Assembly: GCA_963835605.1 (NCBI GenBank)
Contig: CAWIHO010000062.1
Span: 5,177 to 69,176, forward strand
Direction: 5' to 3'
DNA from: an uncultured delta proteobacterium
GTDB lineage: Bacteria > Desulfobacterota > Syntrophorhabdia > Syntrophorhabdales > WCHB1-27
DNA length: 64,000 bases
Each line of letters opens with the position of its first letter. The stretch's first letter is position 1. The position numbers and the translations under genes are program-made. The notes below the pieces were generated by a model. That model saw only the letters and a list, made by a program, of their open reading frames with translations, searched no databases and was not told the origin of the DNA. Shown here one piece after another: positions 16,449 to 58,653 of the stretch.

Positions 16449-16457
16449 GTCATCCCC

Positions 16458-18834: not shown

Positions 18835-18899
18835 TCAGTTACCGGTGATCGGTGATCAGTGTTTAGTGCAAAGCACAGCCAGGGCCGCAACCAAAACAA

Positions 18900-22739: not shown

Positions 22740-22740
22740 A

Positions 22741-35283: not shown

Positions 35284-36307
35284 GTGAAAAGATGGACCAC
35301 CCTTGTTTTTGTTGCTTTTCTCCTTCTTATAGCTGCAGACGGCTACGGCCAGTCAGACATCCCTCAGCGGAAGCAGCAGCCGGTGGAGAGGCGGATTACC
35401 GATGCTGAAAAAGAGGTCGCGGGTCCCAGAAAAGAGGTGAGCTTTTTCAGCCTGCTTACCTTTCCCCCTCTCCCTGAATCTTTAACGCTCTGCAACAAGC
35501 CCATACCGCTCGCGGTCGATGACATTCGGGAACGATTTGAAAGGGAATATTATCAGATGCTCGAGCATCGGGGGCTTCTGACGATACTTGTCAAACGGTA
35601 CGCCAAATACGGGCCTATCCTGTCCGACGAGATCAACAAGATGAACATGCCTTCCGATCTTATCTACCTAGCGCTTACCGAGAGCTATCTCAACCCGCGC
35701 GCAGTCATCCAAGGCAAATGCCGGCGGCATGTGGCAGTTCATCAAGGAGACGGGCAAGCGCGAAGGGCTCAATATCAATGACAACATCGATGAGCGGTAC
35801 AGCATTGTTCGGTCAACGAGGTCAGCGCTCAGTTACTTAAAAAAACTGAATGATGAGTTCGGGGATTGGCTGCTGGCAATGGCAGCCTATAATTGCGGTG
35901 AAGCGCGTATCAGGGACGCCATTGCCAACCAGATGACCAGAGACTTCTTTGAGCTGTATCTCCCCGAAGAAACCGACAGGTACATTTACCGTGTTGCCTC
36001 CCTAAAGGAAATCATTACGAATACAAAGAAATATGGGCTCACGATAGACCAGAAAGACTACTATAAGCCTTTTGCGGTCACAGAGTACGTGCTGGAAGTG
36101 AAACAGGACGTGCACACCGCTACCCTTGCACAGGCAATGGACATGTCGTATAAAACCTTTCGGGAACTCAACCTACACCTGCGAAAGTATAGCCTCCCCA
36201 AAGGCGTCTACTACCTTTACGTTCCTTCCGAAAAGAAGGAGGTGTTTCTCCGGCGCTTAAAAGAAAATCCAAATTTGGGTATTCAGAATTATCGGGACCG
36301 GAATTAA
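35284..36307 (+). pseudogene. Lytic transglycosylase (SLT domain), frameshift near 35700 as assembled
   Basis: Signal peptide MKRWTTLVFVAFLLLIAADG. ...LALTESYLNPRA in one frame continues as SSKANAGGMWQFIKETGK in the next, which together form the SLT catalytic motif. The junction lies in a CGCGCGC tract. Confidence 0.75.
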
Positions 36308-36612: not shown

Positions 36613-36858
36613 ATGGCAAAGGCGAAAATGGTTTGTCCATTTTCGGGCAAAGTGTGTATCCAGTGTGGTATATTCAGAGGGAGGCACGCCGGCTTCTGCT
36701 ACGTGACGACATATCGCGGAAATATGCAGGAGGGGCAGGTGCTCAAGAAGCCGGAACCGACGCGCAGCAGTGACACGAAGTTCGATCTCCCCGAGATTCC
36801 CTTTGACCCGAACCGACTGGCAAACCTTGAAGACTGTATGGAAAGGAGGGGCACATGA
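36613..36858 (+). CDS. Small Cys-motif protein, translationally coupled to the hydroxylase FAD subunit
   Basis: 81 aa. GAGGAGG upstream. N-terminal CPFSGKVCIQCGIFRGRHAGFC. Its stop overlaps the next ATG (ATGA). Confidence 0.6.
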   Translation: MAKAKMVCPFSGKVCIQCGIFRGRHAGFCYVTTYRGNMQEGQVLKKPEPTRSSDTKFDLPEIPFDPNRLANLEDCMERRGT

Positions 36859-37730
36859 TTCACGATTTTACGTACTTACAACCCGGTAGCGTTAAGGAAG
36901 CGCTCGCGATGCTTGCAGAGCACAAGGACGACTGCAAGATCATCTGCGGCGGACAGTCACTCTTGATCGTGATGCGGCAGGGATTGGTGCAGACCGAGTA
37001 CCTGATCGACATCAAGCGACTTAATGAGCTTAATTACATTAAGTACGATGATAAGGGCGGGCTCAAGATAGGGGCAACGACCACCCACCGCGCGATCGAG
37101 AAGTCTGACGTGATTGCAAAGAAGTACCCGGTCCTCGTTGACATGGAACACAAGTTGGCATCCATCCAAGTGCGGAACTGGGGCACCATCGGCGGTAACC
37201 TGGCTCATGCGGACGCAGCAGGCGACCCGGCACCGGTCCTTACCGCGCTCAACGCCACGGTCAAGGTGGGCAGCGCAAAGGGCGAGAGGACCATCCCCCT
37301 CGAGGAGTTCTACACCGATCTCTTCGAAACGGCCATGGAGCCGGGTGAGCTGGTGCTCGAGGTCCAGGTCCCCGCACCCGCCCCGAAGACGGCAACGGCT
37401 TACCAGAAGTTCAACCTGCTGGAAAGCGACCAGGGCATCGTCGCCGTTGCGGTAACAATCACGGTCGATGCGGGCGGTACCTGCAAGGAGGCGCGGATCG
37501 TCCTTGGGAACGCAGCCTCCACGTCGATACGGGCGAAGAACGCGGAAGCGGTCCTCGTTGGGAAGAAATTGACCGACGCGCTCTTTGAAAAGGCAGGCGA
37601 GGCAGCATCACAGGAATGCGAGCCTGTCGGGGACATTCACGCATCTGAAGAATACAGACGCCATCTGATAGGTGTCCTCACCAGGAGAATGGCGAAGGCG
37701 GCCTTTGAACAGGCCAAAAAGATCGGCTAG
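36855..37730 (+). CDS. Molybdenum hydroxylase FAD-binding (medium, CoxM/XdhB-like) subunit
   Basis: 291 aa. Contains GGQSLL, GTIGGNLAHADAAGD and EEYRRHL. Confidence 0.88.
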   Translation: MIHDFTYLQPGSVKEALAMLAEHKDDCKIICGGQSLLIVMRQGLVQTEYLIDIKRLNELNYIKYDDKGGLKIGATTTHRAIEKSDVIAKKYPVLVDMEHKLASIQVRNWGTIGGNLAHADAAGDPAPVLTALNATVKVGSAKGERTIPLEEFYTDLFETAMEPGELVLEVQVPAPAPKTATAYQKFNLLESDQGIVAVAVTITVDAGGTCKEARIVLGNAASTSIRAKNAEAVLVGKKLTDALFEKAGEAASQECEPVGDIHASEEYRRHLIGVLTRRMAKAAFEQAKKIG

Positions 37731-37748: not shown

Positions 37749-38237
37749 ATGGAAAAGAAGCTATTGCGGTTCACAGTGAATGAGGCACCATACGAGATTT
37801 ACATAAATCCCAAGACCCTTCTGGTCGAAGCCATCAGAGATCATGTCGGGCTCACCGGGACCAAGAGGGGCTGCGAGACGGTCTCCTGCGGCGCATGCAC
37901 CGTCATGGTGGATGGCATGGCGGTAAAGGGTTGCTCCGTGCTTGCCATGCAGGTGGAAGGGATGAAGGTCACAACGGTTGAGGGCCTGGAGAAAAACGGT
38001 AAACTTGATCCAATCCAGACGGCATTCCTCGACGAGGGCGCCTTTCAGTGCGGTTTCTGCACGTCCGGCATGCTCATGTCGGCCAAGGCCTTCCTTGATG
38101 AGACGCCGAAGCCAAAGGATGAGATGGAAATCAGGCGCGCCATGGAGGGCAACCTCTGCCGGTGCACCGGCTACAACGCCATCATCAGGGCGATCGACGC
38201 GGTGGCCAAGGGGAACTACAGGGAGGATAAGCGATGA
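37749..38237 (+). CDS. Molybdenum hydroxylase [2Fe-2S] (small, CoxS-like) subunit
   Basis: 162 aa. Contains CETVSCGACTV, QCGFCTSGM and CRCTGY. Confidence 0.92.
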   Translation: MEKKLLRFTVNEAPYEIYINPKTLLVEAIRDHVGLTGTKRGCETVSCGACTVMVDGMAVKGCSVLAMQVEGMKVTTVEGLEKNGKLDPIQTAFLDEGAFQCGFCTSGMLMSAKAFLDETPKPKDEMEIRRAMEGNLCRCTGYNAIIRAIDAVAKGNYREDKR

Positions 38238-40529
38238 GCGAGAACAAATATAGCGTCCTTAATACAAGGGTTCATAATGTGGACGGCCATGCCAAGGTGA
38301 CGGGACGGGCGACGTACACGTTCGACGTGACACTGCCCGGCATGCTCTACGGGAAGATCCTGCGGAGCCCCCACCCCCACGCCAAGATACTCAAGATTGA
38401 CTATAGTGAAGCACTGAAATTCCCGGGTGTGATAGCAGTCGTTACCGGGAAGGAAGATACGCTCGGTGTAAAGCAGGGTATCTGGAGACGTTACAAGGAT
38501 CTGTGCGACGAGGCGATCCTGACGGTCGACAAAGTCCGTTACATCGGCGAGCCCGTTGCAGCGGTCGCTGCCGTGAGCGAGGAGATCGCCGAGCAGGCAC
38601 TCGACCTTATTAATGTGGACTATGAGGTACTTCCCTTCGTTGATGACCCGATGGAAGCCATCAAGAAAGATGCCCCACTGATTCACGAAGGCTTCGAGAG
38701 GAACGTGAACGTGACGCGCCAGATTTCCTGGGGCGATGTGGAAGAAGCATTCGAGGAAGCTGACTATATCAGGGAAGACTGGTTCAAGCTGGGCGGCCAG
38801 CACCATATGTGCATGGAGACCCGCGCGGCGGTGGCGAACTACACGCCTGACGGGAAACTCACGATCTATACATCAACCCAGTCTGCCTACTATCACCAGG
38901 CGCTCCTCGCCGGCGTGCTCGGCCTGCGCGAGGGTAACATCCGTGTGCTCGCACCCTATGTCGGCGGCGGCTTCGGCGGCAAGTTCGAGCTTGACGGCGC
39001 CCAATTCTGCGCATCGATCCTCTCCATGAAATGCTGTAAACCTGTCAAGGTTGTCTTCTCACGGGAGGAAGATTTTATCGCTTCCAAGCGTCGTACCCCC
39101 ATGTACTACTATGTGCGCACCGGCGTCAAAAAGGACGGGACCTTCTGCGCAAGGGAGGCTAAGGTATTCACGAACGGCGGCGCTTACACGGGTATGGGCG
39201 CCACAGCCCTTTACCTGACAGGTTTCTTTCACTCCTTCCCTTACCGCTGGAAGGCGTACCGCTATGACGGCTACAGGGTTTACACGAACAGCCTGCCCTC
39301 CACCTCGATGCGCGGCTTCGGCGCTCCGCAGGCTATGTTCTGCTCGGAGCAGCAGCTCGAGTGGATAGCGAATGACCTGGGTCTCGACCCGATTGAGATG
39401 AGGCGCAAAGAACGGACATTATGAAGGGTATGAAGTCCCGGGACAGGCCACCATCGCGAGCTGCGGCCTGGATCAGGCTCTCACAGCGATCCAGAAGTGG
39501 ATAAAGTCAAAAGGCAAGCTCCCGAAAAACAGGGCCATCGGCATCTCCGCGGCGGGCTTCATGTCCGGCGGTATCTTCAACTGGTTCGACTCCCCTTATT
39601 CCTTCTCTTCTGCGGTTGTCACGATCAATCACGATGGAACCGTAGAACTCCATGTCGGCGCGCAGGAGATCGGGCAGGGCTCCAGCACCACAATGGCTAT
39701 GATCTGCGCAGAGGCGCTGGGTGTTAAGCTGGAAGACATCAAGGTACACATGGGTGACACGGACCACTCTCCGGCTGACCTGGGCGCATGGGGCTCCAGG
39801 CAGACCCTGATGGCCGGTAACGCAACAAAGATGGCGGCGGAGGATGCAAAGCGGCAGCTCCTTGAATTCGCCAATGCAAAGCTGGGATTCAACATCATAT
39901 ACGATCTGGACATAAAGCAGGGTTGGGTTTACAACGTAGCCCGGCCGGAGAGGGGCATGAGCTACTATGACCTCTGCAAGCAAGCGCTTCGCGGCAAGGA
40001 AGGTCAGCGTATTATCGGCAGAGGCTTTTACACGCCTCGCAGAAAGGGCATGATCTCCCCCGCATACAGTTACATGGTGCAGGGCCTCGACGTAGAGATC
40101 GATCCCGAGACCGGCTACATCAAGATCCACGAAAGCGTCACCGCACACGACTGCGGGCAGCCGATCAACACTCTCGGCCTCATTGGCCAGCTCGAAGGTG
40201 CAGCCTCCATGGCCATCGGGTTCGGCTATTATGAGTACCTGCCGGTCGAAGACGGCAAAATCATGAACCCGAATCTGGTTGACTACAAGCTCATCCGCGC
40301 CCCTGAGATGCCAAGCTGCCAGGTCATCGAAATCGATACGTATGAGCCGGAGGGACCTTACGGCGCGAAAGAGGCAGGCGAAGGCCTTACCAACCCGCAT
40401 GCTGCGGCACTGGGCAACGCGATATACTACGCGACCGGCCTTCAGATGAAAGAGGCGCCTATCCGCGCTGAAGCGATCGCGAATGCTTGGAAGGAAAAAA
40501 ACCAAAAAGAGAAGAAAGAGAAGAAATAA
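38234..40529 (+). pseudogene. Molybdenum hydroxylase molybdopterin-binding large subunit, frameshift at ~39407-39409 as assembled
   Basis: ORFs 38234-39424 and 39561-40529 are two parts of one protein. The +2 frame reads continuously ...NGHYEGYEVPGQATIASCGLDQALTAIQKWIKSKGKLPKNRAIGISAAGFMSGGIF... The frames join at CGCAAAGAAC. Confidence 0.82.
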
Positions 40530-41333: not shown

Positions 41334-41864
41334 TTAACCGCGAGCCTGCACCGTTACTTCAACCGGTGCAGGCTTTTTCTTGGCCGTTTGCTCTTTGCTG
41401 CCGATCACAACCTGTCTGGCATGAATCGATAGGGATCTGAGAAGACGCTTCCCTTCTGCTGACGCTCCCACTAGTGGTGCCCACTCTCCTAAAGGATACC
41501 CGCTGGTAATTATAGTGGACGACCTGTTGATGCGCTCTGTCACGAGTTGAGCGAGAACCTTCGTTTGCGAAGGGACAAATTTCTTCATCCCGAAATCTTC
41601 TATAATGAGCAGCTTGGGTTTAGCGAGTTCCACAAGCTTCACCGCCGACAGCCCTCCTTCCGCACCTGCTGCCAATTCCTCGTGCAGCATTCCGGCATTT
41701 ATAGTCATGACGCTTGTACCTTCTGCCTCGGCCTTCATCCCTAACGCACGAGCCAGTGCGTTCATGTCTGAATTGATACCCCCGGAGATAATCAGCGTTT
41801 CACGCCTATTCAAGAAACCGAGGCTCAAAACGTCTCGTATGTTGCTTGTCTTCATGTTTGCCAC
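41334..41864 (-). CDS. IstB/DnaC-like AAA+ protein with a degenerate Walker A and a truncated N-terminus
   Basis: 176 aa. LLIIEDFG (Walker B-like), SSTIITSGYPLGEW and RLLRSLSIHARQVVIG follow the IstB pattern. The P-loop position reads ISGGINSDMN. Confidence 0.55.
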   Translation of the reverse strand: MANMKTSNIRDVLSLGFLNRRETLIISGGINSDMNALARALGMKAEAEGTSVMTINAGMLHEELAAGAEGGLSAVKLVELAKPKLLIIEDFGMKKFVPSQTKVLAQLVTERINRSSTIITSGYPLGEWAPLVGASAEGKRLLRSLSIHARQVVIGSKEQTAKKKPAPVEVTVQARG

Positions 41865-42104: not shown

Positions 42105-42734
42105 TTAGGGCGCCGGGGTCACGGGGGCTGCCCTTTGGCTGGGTGCAAACTGGTGGTTGTTGAGTGCAAGAGATATGAGTTTGCGCCGGCCCGTTACGTT
42201 TAGCTTCTTGAAAATCCTATTGAGATGAGCCTTTATCGTATGCTTACTGAGAGCAAGGGCGTCCGCAATCTCATTGTTGCTGTAACCCTGACAGACATAG
42301 TCTATGATCTCTTTCTCGCGGAGTGTAATGCTCCCGATCCTTCCTGTCTTGGTTAACGTCCCCGAGTCGTGCAGAAAGGCCACGACCGTACTATTGTCGA
42401 CCCATATTTGACCCTGGCTCACGACGGTGAGGGCTTTCTTGAAGAGCTCCAGTTCGGTGCGGGGAGATAATACTCCGTGTATCTTGTAGGAAAGCAGTGC
42501 CGCTATGATGCGTTCTTTTTCCAGACCCGTATCGATGAGGAAAACCTTTGCGTCAGGATATAGGGAAAGGAACTGTTGGTCCAGGGTCTGAATGTCTACC
42601 ATGACCGTGTCCGGACTGAACGTATTGGATCGAGGGTTGTTACCAGCTACCACACTCTCATAGCCATTCCTGACCAGAAGCTGAGACATCGCCTCCGCTA
42701 TCAGGTGGTTCCCCAAGTGAATGAGAATCTTCAT
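42105..42734 (-). CDS. LuxR/NarL-family regulator with an atypical receiver domain
   Basis: 209 aa. C-terminal HTH LTLREKEIIDYVCQGYSNNEIADALALSKHTIKAHLNRIFKKL. The N-terminus reads KILIHLGNH where canonical receivers have ILIVDDH. Confidence 0.75.
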   Translation of the reverse strand: MKILIHLGNHLIAEAMSQLLVRNGYESVVAGNNPRSNTFSPDTVMVDIQTLDQQFLSLYPDAKVFLIDTGLEKERIIAALLSYKIHGVLSPRTELELFKKALTVVSQGQIWVDNSTVVAFLHDSGTLTKTGRIGSITLREKEIIDYVCQGYSNNEIADALALSKHTIKAHLNRIFKKLNVTGRRKLISLALNNHQFAPSQRAAPVTPAP

Positions 42735-42883: not shown

Positions 42884-42924
42884 CCAAAGAAAAAAGGGCC
42901 GCGCAGTCTCTTCACTGCGCGGCC
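42884..42924 (-). terminator. Rho-independent terminator after the Nfn-like gene
   Basis: On the minus strand: GGCCGCGCAG-TGAAGAGA-CTGCGCGGCC followed by CTTTTTTCTTT. Confidence 0.75.
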
Positions 42925-43008: not shown

Positions 43009-45303
43009 TCACCACTTCCCTGTCTTCAGGTATTCGTCCATGGCAGCAGCCGCCTTTTTCCCAGCACCCATGGCGAGGATCACTGTCGCAGCGCCCGTCA
43101 CGATGTCGCCACCGGCAAACACACCCTTCCTGGTGGTCTTACCCGTCTCCGGATCAGCCTCTATGTAACCGGGTTTTCTCAGTTTGAGCCCGGGGGCGTC
43201 CTGCGTCAGTATCGGGTTAGGACCCTGCCCGATAGCAACGACCACGACGTCAACGTCGATGATATGCTCGGACCCCTTCACTTCGACGGGTCTTCTCCTG
43301 CCCGAGGCGTCCGGCTCGCCAAGCTCCATCTTCTGGCACTCAATACCTTTGACCCAGTTCTTGTCGTCACCGACGATTCTCACCGGGTTTGTGAGTATCC
43401 TGAAATCGATGCCTTCCTCTTCCGCATGGTGGGCCTCCTCCGCCCGAGCCGGCATTTCAGCCCGGGACCGCCGATATATGAGGTAAACATGTTCGGCCCC
43501 CAGTCGCCGTGCGACCCTTGCCGAGTCCATGGCTACGTTTCCGCCGCCGATTACCGCGACCCGGTTTCCCACCCGCACAGGCGTGTCATACTCAGGGAAG
43601 AGATACGCCTTCATCAGGTTGGCCCGCGTCAGGAACTCGTTGGCCGAATAAACACCGTTCAGGTTCTCACCGGGGATGTTGAGAAAATAGGGCAGGCCCG
43701 CTCCCGTGCCGATGTAAACAGCATCGAATCCCTTCTCAAAGAGCTGGTCAAGCGACATGGTCTGGCCGATGATCGTATCCACCTTCATCTTTGCTCCCAG
43801 CTTGGTCACATAATCTACCTCACGCTGTACAATGGCCTTCGGCAGACGGAATTCAGGAATACCGTAGATAAGCACACCGCCGGCCTTATGAAGCGCTTCG
43901 AACACCGTGACATCGTGTCCCTTCTTTGCGAGCTCACCTGCCACGGTCAATCCGCCCGGACCTGCTCCGACAACAGCCACCTTCTTCCCCGTAGGGGGCG
44001 CTATTTCGGGCACCCGCACGTCGCCGAGGCTCAATTCATAGTCGGCTGCAAACCGTTCCAGCCGGCCTACAGCGACAGGCTGTCCCTTCTTTCCCAGCAC
44101 ACATTTGCTTTCGCACTGCGATTCCTGCGGGCAGACCCTACCGCAGACAGCCGGCAGACTATTCGTCTCTTTAATCTCGCGAATGGCGCCGATAAAATCG
44201 CCCTCCTTGATCTTCTTGATGAAGGCCGGGATGACGACGCCCACCGGACAACCTTCGACACAGGGCATATTTTTGCACCCCAGACATCTGGAGGCTTCTC
44301 TCAGCGCATTCTCCCGCGCATAGCCAAGGGCCACTTCATTAAAATTCTGGATCCTCAATCTGGGATCCTGTTCCGGCATCTTCTCCCGGACTTTTGACTT
44401 CTTCAGCTTTGCAGCGGCAGCCTCCAGCTTGCATTTATGATCCCAGGCTGCCCGCCGCTCCTCCCGCGTATACATCTGCTGCCTGAGCATAAGCTCTTTG
44501 AAGTCCACCTGGTGGCCATCAAACTCGGGCCCGTCCACGCAGACAAACTTGGTTTCGCCGCCGATCGTTGCCCTGCAGCAGCCGCACATGCCCGTACCAT
44601 CAACCATGATCGTATTGAGGCTTACCACGGTCTTTATGCTGTGCGGCCGCGTCACGTCCGTGACTGCTCGCATCATAATGACCGGGCCGATACCTATGAC
44701 CAGGTTTATAGGCGTCTTTTCCTGGATGAGACGCTTCAATTCGTCAGTGACAAACCCGTGGTGACCATACGTGCCGTCATCCGTTGTAACGAGCAGTGTA
44801 TCGCTGATCGCCTTCATCTCCTCTTCCAGTATCAGCATCTCCTTCGAGCGGGCCCCGATGATGGAAATGACACGGTTTCCTATCTCGTGCAGGGCCTTCG
44901 CTATAGGATAGACGGGCGCCACGCCGACCCCGCCGCCCACACAGACAACCGTGCCGAATTTTTCGATGTGGCTCGGCCTGCCCAGCGGCCCCACGACGTC
45001 CATGATCCGCTCACCTTGCTCCAGCTTCGCCATTCTCTGCGTTGAGGAACCTACCGCCTGAAAGATGGTCGTTATCAGGCCCATCTTCCGGTCGAAATCA
45101 GCAACGGTCAGCGGGATACGCTCAGCACGATCATCCGCCCGCAAGACCACAAATTGCCCGGGCTTCACCCGCGCCGCAATATCCGGCGCATAAAGCTTGA
45201 ATAGCGTTATTGAGGGCGCCAGTTCGCGTTTCTCAACTATCTCGTTGAGCTTGAACCCCTTTTCCTCTTCCGTTGGTTGCTTAACTTTACTCGCTGTTGC
45301 CAT
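43009..45303 (-). CDS. Fused NfnA/SudB-like plus NfnB/GltD-like NAD(P)H:ferredoxin oxidoreductase
   Basis: 764 aa.
- **Residues 1-~285:** PyrK-type FAD/NAD module ending in DGTGMCGCCR.
- **Remainder:** GltD-like, with two Fe-S motifs (CLGCKNMPCVEGCP, CGRVCPQESQCESKC) and VAVVGAGPGGL. Confidence 0.82.
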   Translation of the reverse strand: MATASKVKQPTEEEKGFKLNEIVEKRELAPSITLFKLYAPDIAARVKPGQFVVLRADDRAERIPLTVADFDRKMGLITTIFQAVGSSTQRMAKLEQGERIMDVVGPLGRPSHIEKFGTVVCVGGGVGVAPVYPIAKALHEIGNRVISIIGARSKEMLILEEEMKAISDTLLVTTDDGTYGHHGFVTDELKRLIQEKTPINLVIGIGPVIMMRAVTDVTRPHSIKTVVSLNTIMVDGTGMCGCCRATIGGETKFVCVDGPEFDGHQVDFKELMLRQQMYTREERRAAWDHKCKLEAAAAKLKKSKVREKMPEQDPRLRIQNFNEVALGYARENALREASRCLGCKNMPCVEGCPVGVVIPAFIKKIKEGDFIGAIREIKETNSLPAVCGRVCPQESQCESKCVLGKKGQPVAVGRLERFAADYELSLGDVRVPEIAPPTGKKVAVVGAGPGGLTVAGELAKKGHDVTVFEALHKAGGVLIYGIPEFRLPKAIVQREVDYVTKLGAKMKVDTIIGQTMSLDQLFEKGFDAVYIGTGAGLPYFLNIPGENLNGVYSANEFLTRANLMKAYLFPEYDTPVRVGNRVAVIGGGNVAMDSARVARRLGAEHVYLIYRRSRAEMPARAEEAHHAEEEGIDFRILTNPVRIVGDDKNWVKGIECQKMELGEPDASGRRRPVEVKGSEHIIDVDVVVVAIGQGPNPILTQDAPGLKLRKPGYIEADPETGKTTRKGVFAGGDIVTGAATVILAMGAGKKAAAAMDEYLKTGKW

Positions 45304-45352: not shown

Positions 45353-46846
45353 TCACCTATGTGGCTCTTTAATAGGAAGCTTAACCGTAAAGGTAGTTCC
45401 TTTACCTACCTTGCTCTCTACGTCAATACGGCCAAAATGGGACTCCACAATCTTCTTCACGATGGACAGCCCGAGGCCGGTGCCCGTAGTATATCTCGTT
45501 TCGGGCCCCGACACTCTGTAAAACTCTTCGAATATATGGGGCAGGTGCTCCTCGGCTATGCCAATGCCTGTATCCGTCACTCTAACATTCAGAGCGTGGT
45601 TCCCTCTTTTCGCGCTGACTATCACCTTGCCCCGCTTCACGTTGTACTTGATGGCATTCGATACGAGATTGGTAAATAGCTGCTCCATCTCGCTCCGATC
45701 GGCCTCGACCAGTGGAAGGGATTCGGGCAGGTCAATCTGGAACTGGATACCCTTTGGGTCACCTTGGGCCTTCAAGAGCTCGACCGTATTCGTGATAATG
45801 CCTGAAAGATCGAGTAACTCCTTCTTCCTCACCACCCTCTTCGCTTCCAATCGACTGAACTCCAGAAGATCATTAACCAACTCAAGGAGCGCGTGGGCTC
45901 GCTGTTTTGCCCGGTCCAGCATCTGGCGGCTAACCTGCGGGTCAGTCCCTGCAAGACCCTGCAGATATGCTGTCAAGTACCCCTCGATTGCCCCCAGAGG
46001 TGCGCGCAGCTCATGAGTGACCATGGTAACAAACTGCGTCTTTACCTGATTGATCTCCGTGAGCTCCGTAATATCGCGCAGCACGCTCACGACACCAAGC
46101 CCTTGCCCGTTATTGTCTCTGACTACGGAGAGGTTGACCATGAGCGTGCGCGACTCCGGCTCACGCAACTCTATCTCTTCGGAATGCACGGTATACTGGG
46201 ACGCATCGGGCGCAAACGCCTTATCAATAAGCGCGATAAGGTCCTTTTGCGGAATCAATTCATGTATATCTTTGCCCGCCTCCAACTTCTCGTGCAGGTT
46301 GAGCATCTTGACGGCAGCGGGGTTCCAGAGCACGATCTGACGTTCGTTGTTGATCACCAGGATGCCATCCGCCATCGAATCAACAATCGCGCGCAGTTTC
46401 GATTCTTCCTTTGCAACCTCAAGCAGCTTCTGGTCTCTTTCCTCCATGAGCCGCTGCGCCTGGATGCGTAACCGCCGTTTCTCCAAACCACGATTAACAA
46501 CAGCCAGCAGCTGATCGGGCGTAAACGGCTTGGGAACGTAGTCGTAGGCGCCATGTTTCATCGCCTCAACAGCGGTTTCTATGGTGGCAAACCCGGTGAT
46601 GACGATCATGATAATTTCCGGGTCGAACCGGCTCACTTCGTCCATCAGCTCCAGTCCGCTCATGACGGGCATCATAAGGTCCACAAGCAGCAGGTCATAA
46701 GGTTTCCCGCCGCGGGCCAGGTCCCACCCTTCCTTGCCATTTGTCGCTACATCCACAGAGAATCCTTCGGCCGTCAAGATTCTCCGACAGCCTTCACGGA
46801 TGCCCCGCTCATCGTCTACGACAAGGATATTTACAATATCACTCAT
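45353..46846 (-). CDS. Hybrid receiver-PAS-histidine kinase
   Basis: 497 aa. REC (ILVVDDERG...DLLLVDLMMP), a PAS-like middle region, HisKA THELRAPL, and HATPase DTGIGI...GTGLGLSI. Confidence 0.88.
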   Translation of the reverse strand: MSDIVNILVVDDERGIREGCRRILTAEGFSVDVATNGKEGWDLARGGKPYDLLLVDLMMPVMSGLELMDEVSRFDPEIIMIVITGFATIETAVEAMKHGAYDYVPKPFTPDQLLAVVNRGLEKRRLRIQAQRLMEERDQKLLEVAKEESKLRAIVDSMADGILVINNERQIVLWNPAAVKMLNLHEKLEAGKDIHELIPQKDLIALIDKAFAPDASQYTVHSEEIELREPESRTLMVNLSVVRDNNGQGLGVVSVLRDITELTEINQVKTQFVTMVTHELRAPLGAIEGYLTAYLQGLAGTDPQVSRQMLDRAKQRAHALLELVNDLLEFSRLEAKRVVRKKELLDLSGIITNTVELLKAQGDPKGIQFQIDLPESLPLVEADRSEMEQLFTNLVSNAIKYNVKRGKVIVSAKRGNHALNVRVTDTGIGIAEEHLPHIFEEFYRVSGPETRYTTGTGLGLSIVKKIVESHFGRIDVESKVGKGTTFTVKLPIKEPHR

Positions 46847-46871: not shown

Positions 46872-47282
46872 CTATTCCGCCTCTTTCTTCGCCCTTTCCA
46901 GGAGGCTATTGACCTTCTTTACCAGCTCATCAGGCAGCAAGGGCTTACTAGCGTAGTCATCGGTCTTCATCCAGTAACCGTCCAGCTCCTGCGAAAAATC
47001 ATACCCCGTTTCCGTGGAAACCGCCGTGAGCATCAGAATCGGTACATTTTTGTATAACGGGTCTGCTTTAACGGCTTTTGCAAACGTAAAGCCTGTATCA
47101 TGTTTCTCCATCATCAGATCGAGCACAATCAAGTCCGGCTTTTCGAACCTCACCTTCTCCATGGCCTCCCGACCCGAAAAAGCTTCAGCCACCTCGAAGC
47201 CCTGATTCTGAAGCACAGCCTTATTCAGATCTATAAAATCTACATCGTCGTCCACCAGCAAAATCTTCGTCTTCTCACCCAT
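46872..47282 (-). CDS. Single-domain response regulator (CheY-like)
   Basis: 136 aa. Contains ILLVDDD, LIVLDLMM and ASKP. Confidence 0.88.
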   Translation of the reverse strand: MGEKTKILLVDDDVDFIDLNKAVLQNQGFEVAEAFSGREAMEKVRFEKPDLIVLDLMMEKHDTGFTFAKAVKADPLYKNVPILMLTAVSTETGYDFSQELDGYWMKTDDYASKPLLPDELVKKVNSLLERAKKEAE

Positions 47283-48396
47283 GGTCTCCTCTCCCTGAAG
47301 CTATGTTTTGAACGCCTATCCTGTCTATCCTTACATCTTCTCCTCTCTGTTCCTCGTCCGTTGAAATGGGCAGGGAGACAACGAAGGTACTTCCTTTTCC
47401 GAGCTCCGTATCAACATCGATCTTTCCATTATGTCTCTCTATAATGCCGTAAGAGATCGCCAGCCCAAGCCCGGTCCCTTTCTCTTTAGTCGTAAAAAAC
47501 GGGGAAAAGATATTTTTGACCACTTCCGGAGGAATGCCGGGACCCGTGTCCCGTATCTTCACCTTGATCTGTTTCCGCTCTGTGGTTGTTGTGATTGAGA
47601 GCTTTCCGTTGCCCTCCATCGCCTGCGCTGCATTAAGAATGATGTTGAGAAAGACCTGTTTCAATTGTGTCTCGTCGGCCACGATCGTCGGCAAGCCCTG
47701 GAAGAGAGATTTTTTGATCTTGATATTATGAAACAATGACTGGTTTACTACGAGTCCCAGCACATCCTCGATCAGATCATTCACGTTGACCGGTCCCGGC
47801 CTCAGTTTCGTTTCCCTCGCGAAACTGAGAAGACCCTGCACAATCTCCTTGGCGCGGTTCGATTCGTTCACTATCAATTCGACGTCCTCACGCCGCGGAT
47901 CATCCTTATCCATGCCCTTCAAAAGAAGATGCGCGTAAATGGTTATGGTGCCCAACGGGTTGTTTATTTCATGGGCGACACCAGCGGCCAATTGCCCTAA
48001 CGAGGCCAGCTTCTCCGTCCTTATGAGCTGAGTTTGTGCCTGCTCCAGCTCCTGGTGCGAGAGCTGCAGTTCCCGGTGGGACTTTTCAAGCTGCTGATAA
48101 ATCCTCTTGCTCTGCTCCAGGAGGTACGGCATGCACATGTCTGCTTCCGCTATCCCCTGGGCCACGGCTATGGCCTTGTCACGGCACGTCGGGTACCCGC
48201 AGGCCCGACAATCGAGATTGTGATTGGGAGGCAGCTTATCTATTTTCTTGAGGATGGCCCGTATCTGCTCCTCCGTTGGAGTTGGGAGCTGTTCCTCCAT
48301 GCTGATAAAGGTACGATGAAGATCAATATCTCTGAATGTATCGAGCTCAGCCATGATCTTCGGAATGTTCTGCTTGCCCAGATCATATTTCGGCAT
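47275..48396 (-). CDS. Histidine kinase with an N-terminal Cx2Cx4Cx16C Fe-S module
   Basis: 373 aa. CRACGYPTCRDKAIAVAQGIAEADMC (C63, C66, C71, C88), a coiled coil, AHEINNPLG, and DTGPGI...GTGLGLAI. Confidence 0.85.
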   Translation of the reverse strand: MPKYDLGKQNIPKIMAELDTFRDIDLHRTFISMEEQLPTPTEEQIRAILKKIDKLPPNHNLDCRACGYPTCRDKAIAVAQGIAEADMCMPYLLEQSKRIYQQLEKSHRELQLSHQELEQAQTQLIRTEKLASLGQLAAGVAHEINNPLGTITIYAHLLLKGMDKDDPRREDVELIVNESNRAKEIVQGLLSFARETKLRPGPVNVNDLIEDVLGLVVNQSLFHNIKIKKSLFQGLPTIVADETQLKQVFLNIILNAAQAMEGNGKLSITTTTERKQIKVKIRDTGPGIPPEVVKNIFSPFFTTKEKGTGLGLAISYGIIERHNGKIDVDTELGKGSTFVVSLPISTDEEQRGEDVRIDRIGVQNIASGRGDHG

Positions 48397-49483
48397 ACCG
48401 AGCGATTATCTGCCTGCGTCCGATCAGGAATAAGTCGCGCTCTACAAATGGGCCGTCGATGCAGCCCTCGCAATAAACGAGATCCAGGAACTTGGCATTG
48501 ATGTACCCGGTGGCGACCTGACCCAACGCGCCAATAGCCCGTTTTGGTCCGCCTGTGACGCTGACATCATCCATCATAACATCGAAGTTTGTGCCCATGG
48601 AGCGGTAAAGGCCCCCGACGACCGGCACCACCGTTCCCAGGTAAGGCCTGGGGCCATCGAAATCGGTCTCTTCCAGCCTCCGCCAGCCGCGTCCAACTTC
48701 ATCAACCAGGTCTTTTACTTCTTTTATCGTTATTACCTCATCGATTGCGCCGGCTACTTCAGGGGCAACTGCTTCCTTCATCTGGGCAAAGCAGGAGGTG
48801 ATATAGACCACCTTCCACCCGGGCCTTATGTAACGCGCCACCCTTCCAACCGCAACCATCGGAGAGACGATCGGCGCCAGGCTCGGTATAAGCTGCGTAA
48901 AATACTTCTGCACATAAAAGACAATCACCGGGCAGAAGGATGATATGAGTGGCTTGTAGGCCTCCCCGTACTCAGCGTGTTCCCGCGCCAGCCCATCCAG
49001 CGTGAGCCGCTTATGGTACGCGCGGCTCACGAGGTCCGCACCGAATGCGCCCTCCCAGACTTCCGTGAAACCGATCTGCTTCAGCGCCGTTACCGTCTGC
49101 CTTGGCGAAGCCGCCTCGAAGACTGCCGGGAAAGCCGGATCGAGCACCGCCACGATTCTCTCCTTGTTGGCCAGAAGCTCCTTCACCTTCTCGTACCCAC
49201 TGCGATAGGAGAGTGCCTGTTGCGGACAAGCTTTAAGACAACTCCCGCAGAGAACACACCGCTCAGGAAGAATCCTCAGCGTATCTTTTTCCAGCTTGAT
49301 GGCCTTCGCGGGGCAGATCTGAATACAGAAAAAACAATGGCGACACTTCCGATGGCTGATCTCAATCTCAGCAGGCGCTCTGCTTCCTGCGTGACATCCA
49401 GTGGGATTTCTCAGTGGATAGATGTTCCATGTACGTCCAATCTGCCTACCGTCTATCTTACTGTAACCGAACTTTGAAGTCAA
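48383..49483 (-). CDS. [FeFe]-hydrogenase H-domain-like protein with an N-terminal 2x[4Fe-4S] ferredoxin domain (sensory HydS-type)
   Basis: 366 aa. CRHCFFCIQICP and CVLCGSCLKACP, then divergent H-cluster motif positions SSFCPVIV, TSCFAQMKEA and VYCEGCIDGP. TTG start, uncertain. Confidence 0.7.
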   Translation of the reverse strand: MTSKFGYSKIDGRQIGRTWNIYPLRNPTGCHAGSRAPAEIEISHRKCRHCFFCIQICPAKAIKLEKDTLRILPERCVLCGSCLKACPQQALSYRSGYEKVKELLANKERIVAVLDPAFPAVFEAASPRQTVTALKQIGFTEVWEGAFGADLVSRAYHKRLTLDGLAREHAEYGEAYKPLISSFCPVIVFYVQKYFTQLIPSLAPIVSPMVAVGRVARYIRPGWKVVYITSCFAQMKEAVAPEVAGAIDEVITIKEVKDLVDEVGRGWRRLEETDFDGPRPYLGTVVPVVGGLYRSMGTNFDVMMDDVSVTGGPKRAIGALGQVATGYINAKFLDLVYCEGCIDGPFVERDLFLIGRRQIIARYAEI

Positions 49484-49630
49484 CGAAATCGCAGGCTTTT
49501 ACGTCCTTCTCCGGAGAGGTTTGCAACTTACGGTACAATTCGTTAATCTAATTTGCCATTCCATGGACCGCTACGGACTGCCATGGGCCGTCCGGTGGCG
49601 GGCTATCAGGCGCGACACGCGAAGGGAAGT

Positions 49631-50935
49631 ATGGCGGGCAATAAGAAAGAGCTGAACAGCCAGAGCACGCTGAGATTTGTAATGAGGGCCCTGCGTCACC
49701 GGAATTACCGTCTCTTTTTTGCCGGACAAGGTATTTCTCTGATAGGGACCTGGATGCAGCGGATTGCCATGAGCTGGCTGGTTTACCGGCTCACAAACTC
49801 CCCCTTTTTACTCGGCCTCGTCGGATTCGCAGGCCAGATTCCTACCTTCCTCTTTGCATCCTTTGCCGGAGTTTTCGTAGACCGATGGGACCGCCACCGC
49901 CTCTTGCTTGCAACACAGACACTGGCGATGGTGCAGGCATCCCTGCTCGCCTTTTTGACTCTGACCGGGCTCGTGGCCGTCTGGCACATCTTTGCGTTGG
50001 CTGTCTGTCTTGGTCTTGTCAACGCATTCGACACGCCCACACGCCAATCATTCGTCATCGACATGCTGGAAGACAAAGAAGATCTCGGCAACGCTATCGC
50101 GCTCAATTCGTTCATGGTAAATGGCGCGCGTTTGGTGGGGCCGTCCCTCGCAGGGATAACGGTCGCGGCTTTCGGAGAGGGTATCTGTTTTCTCTTCAAC
50201 GGGCTCAGTTTTCTCGCGATCATAATCTCATTGCTGGCCATGAAGATACATCGCAAAGCGGAAAAAAGCGTGAGGACCCACCCTTTTCAAGGGTTAAAGG
50301 AAGGCTATCGTTACGCATTTGGCTTCGCACCGATACGGTACCTGCTCATGATTTTGGCCCTCTCGAGCTTTATGGGCATGCCGTACGTAATACTCATGCC
50401 CATCTTTGCCAGAGATATTCTTCACGGAGGACCTCACACGCTCGGCTTTCTCATGGGCGCAGCAGGTGTCGGAGCGTTAATAAGTGCCAGCTATCTTGCA
50501 TCCCGGAAAAGCGTGTTCGGACTGGAAAGAGTGATAGTCTTCGGGTCCGCGATGTTCGGGTGCGGGCTCATCTTCTTTTCTCTTTCCCGTTATATGCTGC
50601 TTTCGCTCGCCTTCATGCTGCTCACCGGTTTCGGCATGATGACCGTTTTAACCTCCTGCAACACGATCTTGCAGACCATCGTTGACGAGGACAAGCGTGG
50701 ACGGGTGATGAGTCTCTATGCGATGGCGTTCATGGGCGTTGTTCCGTTCGGAAGCTTGATGGGAGGAAGCCTGGCCAGTCGCATCGGTGCCCCAGCGACC
50801 CTCATGTTCGGCGGCATCTGCTGCATTGCCGCATCATTTCTCTTCGCCAGAAAACTACCACAGCTGCGCAGAATAACCCGTCCCGTATACATTGACCGGG
50901 GTATCATAAGGGATGTGCAAACGGAATTGCAGTAG
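49631..50935 (+). CDS. MFS transporter (EntS/MFS_3-like)
   Basis: About 12 TM helices. Contains FAGVFVDRWDR. I chose the start MAGNKKEL; the ORF is open from 49553. Confidence 0.8.
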   Translation: MAGNKKELNSQSTLRFVMRALRHRNYRLFFAGQGISLIGTWMQRIAMSWLVYRLTNSPFLLGLVGFAGQIPTFLFASFAGVFVDRWDRHRLLLATQTLAMVQASLLAFLTLTGLVAVWHIFALAVCLGLVNAFDTPTRQSFVIDMLEDKEDLGNAIALNSFMVNGARLVGPSLAGITVAAFGEGICFLFNGLSFLAIIISLLAMKIHRKAEKSVRTHPFQGLKEGYRYAFGFAPIRYLLMILALSSFMGMPYVILMPIFARDILHGGPHTLGFLMGAAGVGALISASYLASRKSVFGLERVIVFGSAMFGCGLIFFSLSRYMLLSLAFMLLTGFGMMTVLTSCNTILQTIVDEDKRGRVMSLYAMAFMGVVPFGSLMGGSLASRIGAPATLMFGGICCIAASFLFARKLPQLRRITRPVYIDRGIIRDVQTELQ

Positions 50936-50939: not shown

Positions 50940-51401
50940 TTACACTGCCCCTAGCATCTCCGCAACCGATTTCCCGTAGTCCTGGCAGGTATGCATGTCC
51001 TGCACCTTCTCAGTCAGCCCACCTTCGAGATCGAAGGGACCGAGGTTCGTCATATTCATCTTGAATCGAGATTCCATCATCTCAAAGAGGTTCTTGGCAG
51101 CGCCACCTTCCCCGCTGCTGGGATGGGCACGGGAACTAAAGGCACCCCCAATCTTTCCTTTCAGGCCGGCCTTCTCCGCGATCGATAAAAACCTCTTGAA
51201 GGGCTCGGGCATATCCAGAGAATAGGTGGGACAGCCGAAAATATAGCCGTCATAGCCCTCCAGATCTTTTTCACTCTTGATGTCGGAGACTTTTTTGAGG
51301 GCTACCTCGTGACCGGCAATGCGCACGCCCTCGGCAATATATTCCGCCATCGTCTCCGTAGTGCCGGTCTTGCTGAAGAATGCGACCAGAACCTTTTTCA
51401 T
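50940..51401 (-). CDS. Flavodoxin
   Basis: MKKVLVAFFSKTGTTETMAEYIAEG. The longer ORF (to 51491) runs into repeat family 2. Confidence 0.85.
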   Translation of the reverse strand: MKKVLVAFFSKTGTTETMAEYIAEGVRIAGHEVALKKVSDIKSEKDLEGYDGYIFGCPTYSLDMPEPFKRFLSIAEKAGLKGKIGGAFSSRAHPSSGEGGAAKNLFEMMESRFKMNMTNLGPFDLEGGLTEKVQDMHTCQDYGKSVAEMLGAV

Positions 51402-51482
51402 AGTATGACCTCCCTCAGATATACTCAACCCTTTGTTCTTCAATATAAGGACCCGAGGACGTAACGACAAGGGGAACTCTTT

Positions 51483-51640
51483 GGATTCCAAATCCTAAAT
51501 GCCAACCACCAAGTCCCAAACAATCTCAAATTATCAAATGTCAAATGTCCAAAACGTTACTGCCAATGAACACGAGTCTTTGAGTTGAATTTTGAACATT
51601 GGAATTTGTTTGGGATTTCGATATTGGGATTTGGAATTTA
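51483..51640. repeat. AT-rich palindromic intergenic element, family 2, copy 2 (inverted relative to copy 1)
   Basis: Arms CCAAATCCTAAATGCCAACCACCAAGTCCCAAACAAT and AATTTGTTTGGGATTTCGATATTGGGATTTGGAATTT. The central CTCAAAGACTCG matches CTCAAGACTCCG of copy 1 on the opposite strand. Confidence 0.75.
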
Positions 51641-56269: not shown

Positions 56270-57295
56270 TCACTCGGGCGCGCGCGCCCAGGTCTGGTCA
56301 GGATCGAACACCTTCACGGCGCGTGCAGCTTTTCTGGTATGCCTGCCGAGGTTCTTCTGGTAGACGACTCCATCCTGGTTAACGATGAAGGTCATGACGC
56401 CCGATGAGCCGTACCGCGCCGGGTAGGCTATCAGGGCAAACCCCCCGATCATCTTGCCCCCGACCACATAGTCATGCGCGCCGCCGGGTGCACTACTGCC
56501 CTGGGCCTTGAGAATCCTGTAAAAGTAGCCGTGGTACGGTGTCGGTCTGCCCCCCAGTCTGCGCCCCATCGGCTGACCACTGTAGCCCTCTTCCAGCGCA
56601 GCGGCAAACAGAGGTCCCATGGGGCTCTCGTCTTCGCCTTCCTTAACTTCCCAATAAAGACCGTCCTGCGTGCCAGGTGAACTTACAAACTTTTGTGCGT
56701 ACTCAAGAAGGCCGCTCCCCTGGCGGCCTTTCTTCATGGCATATTCTTTCTGGGCGTCGACGTAGGCAAGGCACACCTGGATGGCATTCAGCTCATTCCT
56801 GCCGACCCTGCGCGCCAGGATCTCCTCCTTGCCCGCCAGCGTGTCGAACCTCCAGCCACTCCCGGCTTTCACAATGGGGATGGGAAAAGGCCACTCGTCG
56901 TTCCCCACATGGAGCGTGACCCTGCCGGAGGCTTCCTCCAACCTGTTCTTCTCCTCGTAGTGCTTCACGAACCATTCACGCCCTTCTCTATCTTCGACCG
57001 GGTCGCCGGACACGATGATGGCCTTGCTTCCCGGACCGAATATCGTCAGCAGCGATTTCGTATCGTCGGCCTTGACCGCATCGACCATTGCTTTGACGGC
57101 CTCCTCCGGAGAGGAAAAGATCTTCTGGCCTGGGGATTTCGCATAAACGCTGCCACAGGCGAGAAGCATGACAAGAGCGGCCGCTGTGACGAGGAGTTTG
57201 ATACCTCTGCAAGAGCCCTCTTCCTTGGTATGTCTGGATCGCAACATCACTCTATCCTCCCTAGCGAATTGATGTCCGTGAAATGCAGCTTTCAC
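56270..57295 (-). CDS. DUF2950 family secreted protein
   Basis: Contains YFYRILKAQGSSAPGGAHDYVVGGKMIGGFALIAYPARYGSSGVMTFIVNQDGVVYQKNLG. The start is uncertain (GTG 57295 or Met 57247). Confidence 0.78.
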   Translation of the reverse strand: MKAAFHGHQFAREDRVMLRSRHTKEEGSCRGIKLLVTAAALVMLLACGSVYAKSPGQKIFSSPEEAVKAMVDAVKADDTKSLLTIFGPGSKAIIVSGDPVEDREGREWFVKHYEEKNRLEEASGRVTLHVGNDEWPFPIPIVKAGSGWRFDTLAGKEEILARRVGRNELNAIQVCLAYVDAQKEYAMKKGRQGSGLLEYAQKFVSSPGTQDGLYWEVKEGEDESPMGPLFAAALEEGYSGQPMGRRLGGRPTPYHGYFYRILKAQGSSAPGGAHDYVVGGKMIGGFALIAYPARYGSSGVMTFIVNQDGVVYQKNLGRHTRKAARAVKVFDPDQTWARAPE

Positions 57296-58653
57296 TTGCG
57301 ACGTTCTCCTCCGGGCGGGGTGCGGGGACTTCCGCCACGCGAGGCGCCGCCTTGGCCGCCGCTGCCGGGGGGAGTTCTACTGGCGCTGGGCGCAGGGCTC
57401 GCGGTTCGCGCACTCGATAGACTTTCATGGCCTCGATTACTGAACTGCCGCGTTTGGTTGGCAGGAGCAGCGCCGCCAAACGCTGCCGAACCCTGTACTC
57501 CCTGGACCGCCTGACGTGAAGGAGCGGAAGGTTGCCTGGCTGGTTCAGGTCTGGCGACAGGAGGAGCCGTTGCAACCCTTGGCTGCTGCACAGGAGCGGA
57601 AGGTTGCCTGGCCGCTTCTGGCCTGGCCTGACTGGGGCCGGCCGCAGTCCGAGCCTGCTGCGCAGGAGGACGGTTAGGCCCCTGGGCCGCGACTTGCCCC
57701 GCCCCGCCGCGATCAAATCCTCTATAGTCGCGACGGGTGTCGGCACCAGGGAGAGACCCCCGTCCGTACTGCTGGGCAACGGCCGGAGTGCGGTAAGCGA
57801 CTCCCCCCCGATGAGCCGGGTCATGACTCCACATCCCCTGGCCGCCGCTTCCCGCGGTCACGTGACTCGCGTACCTGTTCCTGTCGATGCGGTTATTGAT
57901 GTTCACGTTCCTCGTGACATTGATCGTCACGTTATGACGATGCCAGTCAAAACCGCCCCATGCATAGCCCCACGCGACACCAATTGCCACCCCGAGGCCG
58001 ACGATGCCGGCCGCAAGCACCGCTCCCCGCGGATAATAGCGGTAAGGCTGGTATGCCGGCCACCACCACTGGCCGTACACGGTCATCGGATCATATACCG
58101 GCACGTAGACCATCTGGGGGGTCACCGGTTCGATGCTGATCTCCTGGGTCTGTGGATCCACCATCACGCTCTGTTCGTTCGTGGTCCTCAGGCTGCCCTG
58201 GGCTTGGGCCCTCTGTCTGAGCTGCTGGACCGTGCCCATCACCTGGTCCTTTTGACCAAGGAAAGCGTCTCCCAGCCTTTGCGTCCACTCGAGCTGGTCG
58301 TTCATCATCTGCAAGACCGAGGGGAAGTTTACGAGCGATTTCACGCTCGGGTCCCAGTCCTGTTGTTCCAGCGCAGCCGCCAGGTCGTTCCCTCTCAGGT
58401 TCGGATTTGCCTGAACCCAGCGAGTTGCCTGGACCACCTCCAGGGGATACGTGGCTGCCATCAGGACCTGCACCAGAAGCTCATCCGGATAGAGCGCGAT
58501 GGGCGCAAGCATCTGGTCCAGCTCCTCCTGCCTGAACATCGTCTGCCCGCCCGGATCCTGAAACTGTGCCATGATTCCCCCGGGCGGTACCGCGAGTAGC
58601 ATTATCAGTGACCATAGTAACCAGCGGGCGCATATACGTCTTCTGCTTTTCAT
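57292..58653 (-). CDS. DUF3300 family protein with a low-complexity C-terminal half
   Basis: Contains FRQEELDQMLAPIALYPDELLVQVLMAATYPLEVVQATRW. The C-terminal Pro/Ala/Gln/Arg-rich region has a 24-aa tandem repeat. Confidence 0.8.
   Translation of the reverse strand: MKSRRRICARWLLWSLIMLLAVPPGGIMAQFQDPGGQTMFRQEELDQMLAPIALYPDELLVQVLMAATYPLEVVQATRWVQANPNLRGNDLAAALEQQDWDPSVKSLVNFPSVLQMMNDQLEWTQRLGDAFLGQKDQVMGTVQQLRQRAQAQGSLRTTNEQSVMVDPQTQEISIEPVTPQMVYVPVYDPMTVYGQWWWPAYQPYRYYPRGAVLAAGIVGLGVAIGVAWGYAWGGFDWHRHNVTINVTRNVNINNRIDRNRYASHVTAGSGGQGMWSHDPAHRGGVAYRTPAVAQQYGRGSLPGADTRRDYRGFDRGGAGQVAAQGPNRPPAQQARTAAGPSQARPEAARQPSAPVQQPRVATAPPVARPEPARQPSAPSRQAVQGVQGSAAFGGAAPANQTRQFSNRGHESLSSARTASPAPSASRTPPGSGGQGGASRGGSPRTPPGGERRK

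Follow-up and report, generated by a model that had tools for sequence, protein, structure and literature searches.

A histidine kinase fused to a HydS-type iron–sulfur module with an altered H-domain pocket, encoded in a conserved gene cassette with an Nfn-like enzyme

It is still an open question how anaerobes perceive H2 or electron pressure. The closest described proteins, TmHydS (group C, M2f) and TamHydS (group D, M2e), are putative sensory [FeFe]-hydrogenases for which H-cluster binding, but no signaling output, has been demonstrated. We analyzed a 64,000-nucleotide stretch of DNA from an uncultured delta proteobacterium of the Syntrophorhabdales (contig CAWIHO010000062.1; referred to as the window), in which a minus-strand gene (47275–49430) encodes a HydS-like module in one polypeptide with a sensor histidine kinase. 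Such kinase-fused relatives have an output that is direct and easy to assay: autophosphorylation. Proteins of this general type have been listed in HydDB since 2016 as '[FeFe] group C1, histidine kinase-linked (putative)' (PMC5037454), i.e. as putative sensory H-domains linked to a kinase, a class to which the window protein is assigned by description only. In 2024, Hydrogenedentota C1 proteins with HATPase_c and poorly recognizable P1–P3 motifs were described, and the best-matching HydDB C1 reference was reported to lack a kinase domain (PMC11406978). In the literature, we found neither an experimentally characterized H-domain kinase nor a mention of the Syntrophorhabdus sensor operon. The original prediction for this locus, made from the sequence of the window, was right that no characterized example is known as far as experiments go, but the class itself is already cataloged and widespread and its sensor module is common, so that what is most worth following is the replacement of [2Fe]-binding residues and the link with Nfn.

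Two other systems help to place the protein. In HoxBC–HoxJ and HupUV–HupT, the sensor likewise derives from a hydrogenase and governs a histidine kinase together with a two-component cascade. HoxBC–HoxJ is a functional analogue, the [NiFe] counterpart of the H2-sensing kinase considered below, although these proteins (HydDB group 2b) have an unrelated metal site and fold, and their sensor and kinase are separate members of a complex rather than one polypeptide. Nar1 and NARFL (IOP1) are eukaryotic Fe–S assembly factors, the H-domain of which keeps the [4Fe-4S] ligands and lacks [2Fe]. This [2Fe]-less H-domain is the state that we propose below for the window protein and its closest relatives; the likeness is one of description only, and Nar1/NARFL contain neither a kinase nor the PF04060 motif. 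As for the kinase core, it resembles ZraS and AtoS: the structural match with ZraS (cytoplasmic domain, 9jfj) shows 38% identity, the HE(I/L)NNP H-box is shared and the score against the AtoS model is 259 bits. However, the scores fall below the equivalog cut-offs, the window protein lacks transmembrane and periplasmic parts, and the neighboring genes encode REC-only and REC-PAS-histidine kinase proteins, not an NtrC-type regulator.

In the window, sensor and kinase seem to be encoded by two minus-strand open reading frames (ORFs), 48383–49483 and 47275–48396, which, as originally described, overlap by 14 nt at ATGCCGAAATATGA. When the conceptual fusion of their products was used as a query, it returned more than 1,700 matches, the best 120 of which (64–94% identical) are referred to as the window clade. 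Those among the 120 with a named source are all Syntrophorhabdaceae metagenome bins, and 119 of the 120 are full-length proteins (within 650–735 aa, about 690–717 aa), each one fused polypeptide. The N-terminus of these relatives reads MEH..(E/D)(K/R)SH.MSR. Since translation of the window from the ATG at 49430, in another frame, gives the same residues, a second frameshift has to lie near 49370. Consistently, a blastn gap map against the intact, 91%-identical locus L001 displays uncompensated +1 insertions in the gene only around 49370 and at 48384, and none in the three downstream operon genes. The first insertion (49361–49378) is the extra base in GCGCCTGC[T]GAGATTGAG; it parts MEHLSTEKSHWMSRRKQSAC from EIEISHRKCRHC at a point over which relative P0002 reads KQSACEIEIS. 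The second (48376–48391) is the additional base of GAAATAT[G]ATCTGGGC, at position 48384; it is the source of the 14-nt overlap, and across it relative P0001 reads RYAEIYLGKQNIPK. Once one base per site is removed, the product is 717 aa long, and its alignments to P0001 (94.8%) and P0002 (91.5%) contain no gaps.

Judged from these alignments, the ORF pair is a single gene of 717 codons plus two extra bases, not two genes. The possibility of two genuinely separate, translationally coupled genes was ruled out because every relative is fused and a further frameshift lies upstream. Programmed frameshifting was ruled out as well: the two sites are unrelated, a slippery heptamer is absent and the extra bases are missing from the relatives. 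The earlier proposal that deletion of a single base would fuse the ORFs was correct for the base at 48384 but overlooked the frameshift near 49370; the length then predicted was about 739 aa, versus the 717 aa obtained here. Nor was TTG 49483 borne out as the start: this codon lies inside the −35 hexamer of a promoter-like site (TTGACT-17-TAAGAT, 49455–49483, minus strand), and the start shared with the relatives is the ATG at 49430 in the other frame. The −10 hexamer of this site ends 24 nt before that ATG. The site is a consensus match only, and six promoter-like sites were found in the region versus 4.5 expected by chance, which makes it weak evidence.

From N- to C-terminus, the protein comprises two Fer4 motifs, an H-domain, a PF04060 Fe–S motif, a signaling helix, HisKA and HATPase_c. 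The two ferredoxin-type [4Fe-4S] motifs (C29x2C32x2C35x3C39P and C58x2C61x2C64x3C68P; 49226–49345) match Pfam Fer4 families, and their eight cysteines are invariant in the window clade wherever aligned, the exceptions being two to three N-terminally truncated sequences of the 120. The H-domain (residues 91–327; 48449–49159) matches Fe_hyd_lg_C (PF02906) with an E-value of 1.3e-34 over profile positions 2–245 of 245, as obtained with the ORF that carries it. Its residues C166, C213, C320 and C323 align with C300, C355, C499 and C503 of CpI, the ligands of [4Fe-4S]H, and are invariant in the clade. The ferredoxin and H-domain assignments of the original prediction are therefore upheld by profile searches, as is the C-terminal accessory motif Cx2Cx4Cx16C (C407, C410, C415 and C432), found at exactly the position proposed (48133–48210). 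The kinase ORF matches PF04060 (FeS; 3.7e-10), HisKA (3.7e-13) and HATPase_c (9.9e-28), and no PAS domain was matched by Pfam in the kinase protein. Altogether, the 16 cysteines predicted to bind the four clusters are invariant among the 120 sequences of the clade wherever aligned.

The kinase core (HisKA, residues 477–539; HATPase_c, residues 585–688; 47365–48000) has what is expected of a class I (HisKA) kinase: the H-box histidine (HEINNP), the N (NIILNAAQAM), G1 (DTGPGI) and G2 (GTGLGL) boxes, and a receiver encoded nearby. An AlphaFold model built from 120 diverse relatives (m46e7c90c947e; mean predicted local distance difference test score, pLDDT, 91.1; predicted template-modeling score, pTM, 0.74) matches CbA5H, HydA1, DdH and CpI in Foldseek with E-values of about 1e-20 over some 430 aligned columns. 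A model derived from 17 close homologs was discarded (pLDDT 57.7). In the retained model, DSSP assigns residues 433–505 (47914–48132) to a single long helix, which begins directly after the last ligand, C432, and includes the phospho-acceptor His486 (47971–47973). An unbroken predicted helix from C432 to H486 suggests that cluster and kinase are coupled directly, by mechanical means. The idea of a metallodomain wired directly to a kinase, put forward earlier, is thus in line with the 119 fused relatives and the continuous helix, but the two-ORF arrangement that came with it is that of one frameshifted gene.

To what lineage does the sensor module belong? The H-domain ORF was scanned against 1.84 billion representative proteins (clusters at 50% identity), which gave 5,922 relatives with E-values up to 1e-3, of which 281 clusters reach E ≤ 1e-30. 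All 70 relatives that were sampled contain Fe_hyd_lg_C and 66 of them PF04060, while their C-terminal outputs include HATPase_c (30 proteins), HisKA (29), PAS (15), a sigma-54 activator (5) and GGDEF (3). In view of this variety of C-terminal domains, the module is, at the level of domain architecture, a common signaling input, the commonest output of which is a kinase fusion (about 40% of the sample), with hydEFG or hydABC often nearby. A hidden Markov model (HMM) of the family aligns with TamHydS (group D; sequence taken from the paper's supplement) from end to end with 231 bits, versus a partial alignment of 123 bits with a group A enzyme; profile comparison places the module in the HydS-type lineage (group C/D). 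Like the window protein, TmHydS and TamHydS carry an N-terminal 2x[4Fe-4S] part, an H-domain without C299, a C-terminal Cx2Cx4Cx16C motif and a small or hydroxyl residue at the position of M353 (Thr in the window protein), and they too often lie beside bifurcating hydrogenase operons. Unlike the group C M2f HydS, the window protein lacks PAS, the Fe–S motif leading through a coiled coil into the kinase core. It also differs from TmHydS and TamHydS in the P3 motif, which is Cx2C throughout its family instead of Cx3C, and in the absence of K358 and A230 from the window clade. Moreover, whereas H-cluster binding has been demonstrated for the two HydS proteins, it is only putative for the window family.

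The key differences lie in the pocket of the H-domain, where motifs were placed by HMMER alignments to solved hydrogenases, which agree with the three motif assignments of the original prediction (SSFCP, SCFAQMKE and YCEGC). In CpI numbering, the APS/APA site of hydrogenases (A230-P231-S232) reads DPAF in the window protein (49130–49141), A230 being replaced with Asp in 120 of 120 members of the clade. P1 reads SSFCP (48929–48943): the C300 ligand is kept and the position of C299 is occupied by Phe, as in 118 of the 120 proteins. P2 reads TSCFAQMKE (48773–48799), with the C355 ligand and E361 kept and Gln in place of K358, a position that is Gln in 52 members of the clade, Arg in 45, His in 23 and Lys in none. 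P3 reads YCEGCIDGP (48449–48475), with Cx2C spacing due to a one-residue gap relative to ACxGGC, and with Val at the M497 position (LVYCEGCIDGP). Thus the group A signatures are all altered, be it P1 (SSFCPVI for TSCCPxW), P2 (MPCxxKxxE) or P3 (ExMxCxxGCxxG), and the scores against the NCBIfam models for group A and group B [FeFe]-hydrogenases are far under the cut-offs.

The wider family is different. Its consensus is APS / (A,P,T,S)CP / GPCxAKKxE / LxCxGC; Lys occupies position 358 in 99 of 120 sequences, the commonest patterns being APS...AKK, and Asp230 is found in 13 of the 21 sequences without Lys358. In the 88 canonical relatives A230 and K358 are invariant, but this subset was chosen by these two residues. 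The P1 and P2 motifs of the family are similar to those of TmHydS (TTACP and GPCIAKK), as encoded by the mutagenesis primers in the supplement from which its P1–P3 motifs were reconstructed (P3 via a reverse primer, EASACYGSC). Conversely, the Cx2C spacing of P3 is found family-wide, versus Cx3C in group A, TmHydS (ACYGSC) and TamHydS (ACIGGC). K358 (K228 in CrHydA1) is described as extremely well conserved, and H-cluster assembly is reportedly blocked in its variants (PMC9516953); sensory enzymes keep the residues that hydrogen-bond [2Fe], namely K358 and the APS motif (PMC10055695). Both features are absent from the window clade and present in most of the wider family. In a rough neighbor-joining tree, built without support values, canonical kinase-fused lineages surround the window clade, whose branch is long, so that the pocket changes look derived. 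Probably, the window clade has lost the canonical [2Fe] subcluster or retains it in a strongly altered form.

The kinase gene is the first of a conserved operon. The stop codon of the kinase gene overlaps the ATG of a gene for a single-domain response regulator (46872–47282, minus strand; 136 aa; Response_reg E-value 8.6e-20), a position kept in loci L001–L005, L086 and L087. Next comes a hybrid REC-PAS-HisKA-HATPase_c kinase (45353–46846, minus strand; 497 aa; Pfam), kept in place in L001–L005 and L087 and replaced with a REC-histidine kinase version in L086. The fourth gene (43009–45303, minus strand) encodes a 764-aa oxidoreductase in which NfnA-like and NfnB-like parts are fused (NAD_binding_1, DHODB_Fe-S_bind, Fer4_20 and Pyr_redox_2); it is the fourth gene in L001–L005 and L086 too, whereas in L087 nfnA and nfnB are two distinct genes that precede the kinase gene. 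A terminator-like hairpin (42897–42924, minus strand; 11-bp stem with nine G-C pairs, followed by a T run) lies 85 nt after the Nfn-like gene. Terminator-like sites occur at chance level in the region, but none of the others comes close to this stem in strength, and it likely marks the end of a four-gene operon. In L001–L005, the four-gene cassette is kept in three lineages at 66–94% identity, with differing flanks.

No DNA-binding output is encoded within the four-gene operon. A LuxR-type gene (42105–42734) found no support as an operon output: it lies beyond the terminator and has a counterpart only in L001, none being present in L002–L005. This minus-strand gene encodes 209 aa and has a LuxR/GerE helix-turn-helix at the C-terminus of its product. 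Next to it, just past the terminator, there is also a truncated gene for IstB, the IS21 helper ATPase (41334–41864, minus strand; profile positions 76–229 only). On the other side, an MFS_3-type transporter gene (49553–50935, plus strand) stands between a flavodoxin gene (50940–51491) and the sensor operon; L001 has only about 490 bp at this place, which indicates an insertion or a replacement relative to L001. The synonymous divergence (dS) from L001 is 0.19 in the kinase gene, about half of that in the three downstream genes (0.37–0.46), a difference that could reflect recombination or an additional constraint on DNA or RNA.

More distant loci tie the same kind of kinase to hydrogenase genes. 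In L086, the cassette (about 40% identity) adjoins a DRTGG/HATPase/M2e-HydS/PHP cluster, followed by hydC/hydB-like (NuoE/NuoF-type) genes. Three loci that encode proteins with a canonical pocket have the gene orders hydG/E/F, nfnA, nfnB, kinase, REC and REC-PAS-histidine kinase (L087), hydG, hydF and kinase (L088), and hydC, hydB, hydA, kinase, REC and REC (L090). Note that a contig pattern scan keyed on the kinase domain returned 80 loci that mostly hold unrelated kinases, the full-length sensor being present in nine of them (L006–L013 and L077). Two further arrangements were noticed at related loci. In L002/L003 (2682–9557; P0041 lineage), genes for NuoE-like, NuoF-like and molybdopterin (formate dehydrogenase-like) proteins, NfnA and NfnB precede the cassette, so that both split and fused Nfn lie beside the sensor in this genome. 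A Peptidase_M54 (archaemetzincin-like) gene is found directly 3' of the H-domain kinase gene in two unrelated lineages (L088, 4900–5454; L089, 5295–5912).

Taking pocket and context together, we lean towards the view that the window protein is a cytoplasmic four-cluster sensor kinase that responds to redox state or H2 pressure and lacks the canonical [2Fe] subsite. In such a protein, the four Fe–S clusters would form an electron wire, and the reduction state of the terminal cluster would depend on the pool of low-potential electrons, be it reduced ferredoxin or NAD(P)H, to which the co-transcribed Nfn-like enzyme possibly contributes, so that H2 pressure would be read indirectly. This reduction state would then move the signaling helix between C432 and H486 and switch autophosphorylation, and the phosphoryl group would be passed to the adjacent single-domain receiver, to the REC-PAS-kinase hybrid, or to both. 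The metabolism of Syntrophorhabdus depends on a very low H2 pressure, and a sensor tied to Nfn may be physiologically central there. More tentatively, we suggest that the clade, together with the few independent lineages that have Asp230 and no Lys358, consists of former H2-sensing kinases that have lost [2Fe] and now use the scaffold as an electron wire, the kinase and the always co-transcribed Nfn-like fusion enzyme forming a dedicated phosphorelay that follows ferredoxin/NAD(P)H poise. If so, bacteria would have a parallel to the eukaryotic Nar1, in a syntroph living at the thermodynamic limit.

Several observations weigh against these proposals. E361, P231 and the SPM motif are retained in the clade, and the Arg or His found at position 358 in 57% of its members could still bind a cyanide ligand. 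Sensory hydrogenases tolerate many pocket changes (PMC8163306, PMC10055695). Cofactors being invisible in sequence, the loss of [2Fe] is something that we infer, and, as the Cx2C form of P3 is family-wide, an H-cluster is putative in any member, canonical ones included. Variant-pocket relatives also adjoin hydrogenase operons (L086 and L089), and the 64-kb window contains neither hydrogenase nor hydEFG genes, so that the local context is uninformative as to H2. The role given to the Nfn-like enzyme is a speculation based on synteny. Finally, a recent true pseudogene, discussed below, keeps a small share of probability.

The strongest alternative, which we take seriously but regard as less likely, is that the window protein is a true H2-sensing kinase, in which a complete H-cluster sits in a remodeled pocket and the oxidation of H2 reduces the accessory clusters and thereby operates the switch. 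It would account for the conservation of the four H-cluster cysteines, E361 and P231, and it is in keeping with the end-to-end match between the family HMM and TamHydS, which like TmHydS binds the H-cluster without C299, M353 and M497. The neighborhood speaks for it as well: the nearest canonical kinase-fused relatives, which are probably true H2 sensors acting through an H-cluster, directly adjoin hydEFG or hydABC, and even the variant-type proteins P0125 and P0143 have hydrogenase-type operons as neighbors. The pocket speaks against it. Position 358 is never Lys in the clade, and CrHydA1 K228 variants are reported to fail in assembling the H-cluster; the A230D replacement puts a negative charge beside an anionic cofactor; a bulky Phe fills position 299; and the one-residue deletion in P3 is unseen in any characterized enzyme. 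We retain the sensor kinase without the canonical [2Fe] subsite as the preferred interpretation. Natural pairs, made of a canonical protein encoded beside hydEFG or hydABC and a member of the window clade, could reveal what the H-domain contributes to signaling.

Is the gene functional? The two frameshifts could mean that it is a genuine, recently inactivated pseudogene and that the other broken genes of the window are decaying too. This would fit with the presence of two independent frameshifts in one gene, with at least four other disrupted genes in the 64 kb, one of them through an in-frame stop and not an indel, and with the position of all the mapped insertions outside long homopolymers. 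We nevertheless hold it to be improbable. The ratio of nonsynonymous to synonymous substitution rates (dN/dS) between the whole kinase gene and its intact L001 ortholog is 0.14, which indicates purifying selection; no disruption affects the other three operon genes, downstream of it; and in a collection of 15 billion proteins, the split 373-aa product comes from a single contig, versus 119 intact relatives. Furthermore, the disruptions, about one per 10 kb, hit unrelated genes, some of them conserved, a pattern that would better fit an uncorrected long-read assembly than the genome of a free-living anaerobe. Because at least four other window genes (aldehyde oxidoreductase, cytochrome b561, MtrB/PioB porin and an SLT-domain gene) are broken, the split form is confined to one contig and dN/dS is 0.14, the extra bases are most likely assembly errors, a conclusion of which we are fairly confident. 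The apparent two-gene arrangement would then be one of several frameshift artifacts in this assembly.

Oxygen-sensing Fe–S kinases are an established kind, NreB being an example, and the four Cys-ligated clusters in a kinase of a strict anaerobe might suggest a sensor of oxidants (O2, nitric oxide or reactive oxygen species) in which, as in NreB or FNR, a labile [4Fe-4S] cluster would be destroyed or converted instead of being reversibly reduced. We find this most improbable: the genes with which the relatives are consistently linked are hydEFG, hydABC and Nfn genes, not those of oxidative stress, and an entry domain of ferredoxin type suggests that electrons are exchanged with a partner.

The other disrupted genes are as follows. 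The molybdopterin subunit of an aldehyde oxidoreductase/xanthine dehydrogenase-type enzyme (38234–40529, plus strand) is split into ORFs 38234–39424 and 39561–40529 due to a 1-nt insertion around 39410, relative to an intact 725-aa L001 gene, and the upstream genes for the flavin adenine dinucleotide (36855–37730) and 2Fe-2S (37749–38237) subunits are intact. Two overlapping ORFs in different frames lie at 35284–36307 (plus strand), the second of which matches the SLT profile over positions 40–113 of 117; this SLT transglycosylase-like gene is probably another frameshifted one. The MtrB/PioB-type porin gene (ORFs 14301–15524 and 15876–16448, minus strand) contains an in-frame stop, and a cytochrome b561-type gene is frameshifted near 25380 (25064–25372 and 25389–25823, minus strand).

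Rfam and tRNA scans of the window returned nothing. The last two genes listed above belong to a large minus-strand cluster (14301–27403) that resembles an extracellular electron-transfer conduit: it contains five genes for multihaem cytochromes c (16687–17508, 19215–20750, 21678–22739, 23604–24905 and 25721–27403), three cytochrome b561-type genes and the gene for the MtrB/PioB-type outer-membrane porin. Finally, adjacent DUF2950 and DUF3300 genes with very strong Pfam matches lie at 56270–58653 on the minus strand.

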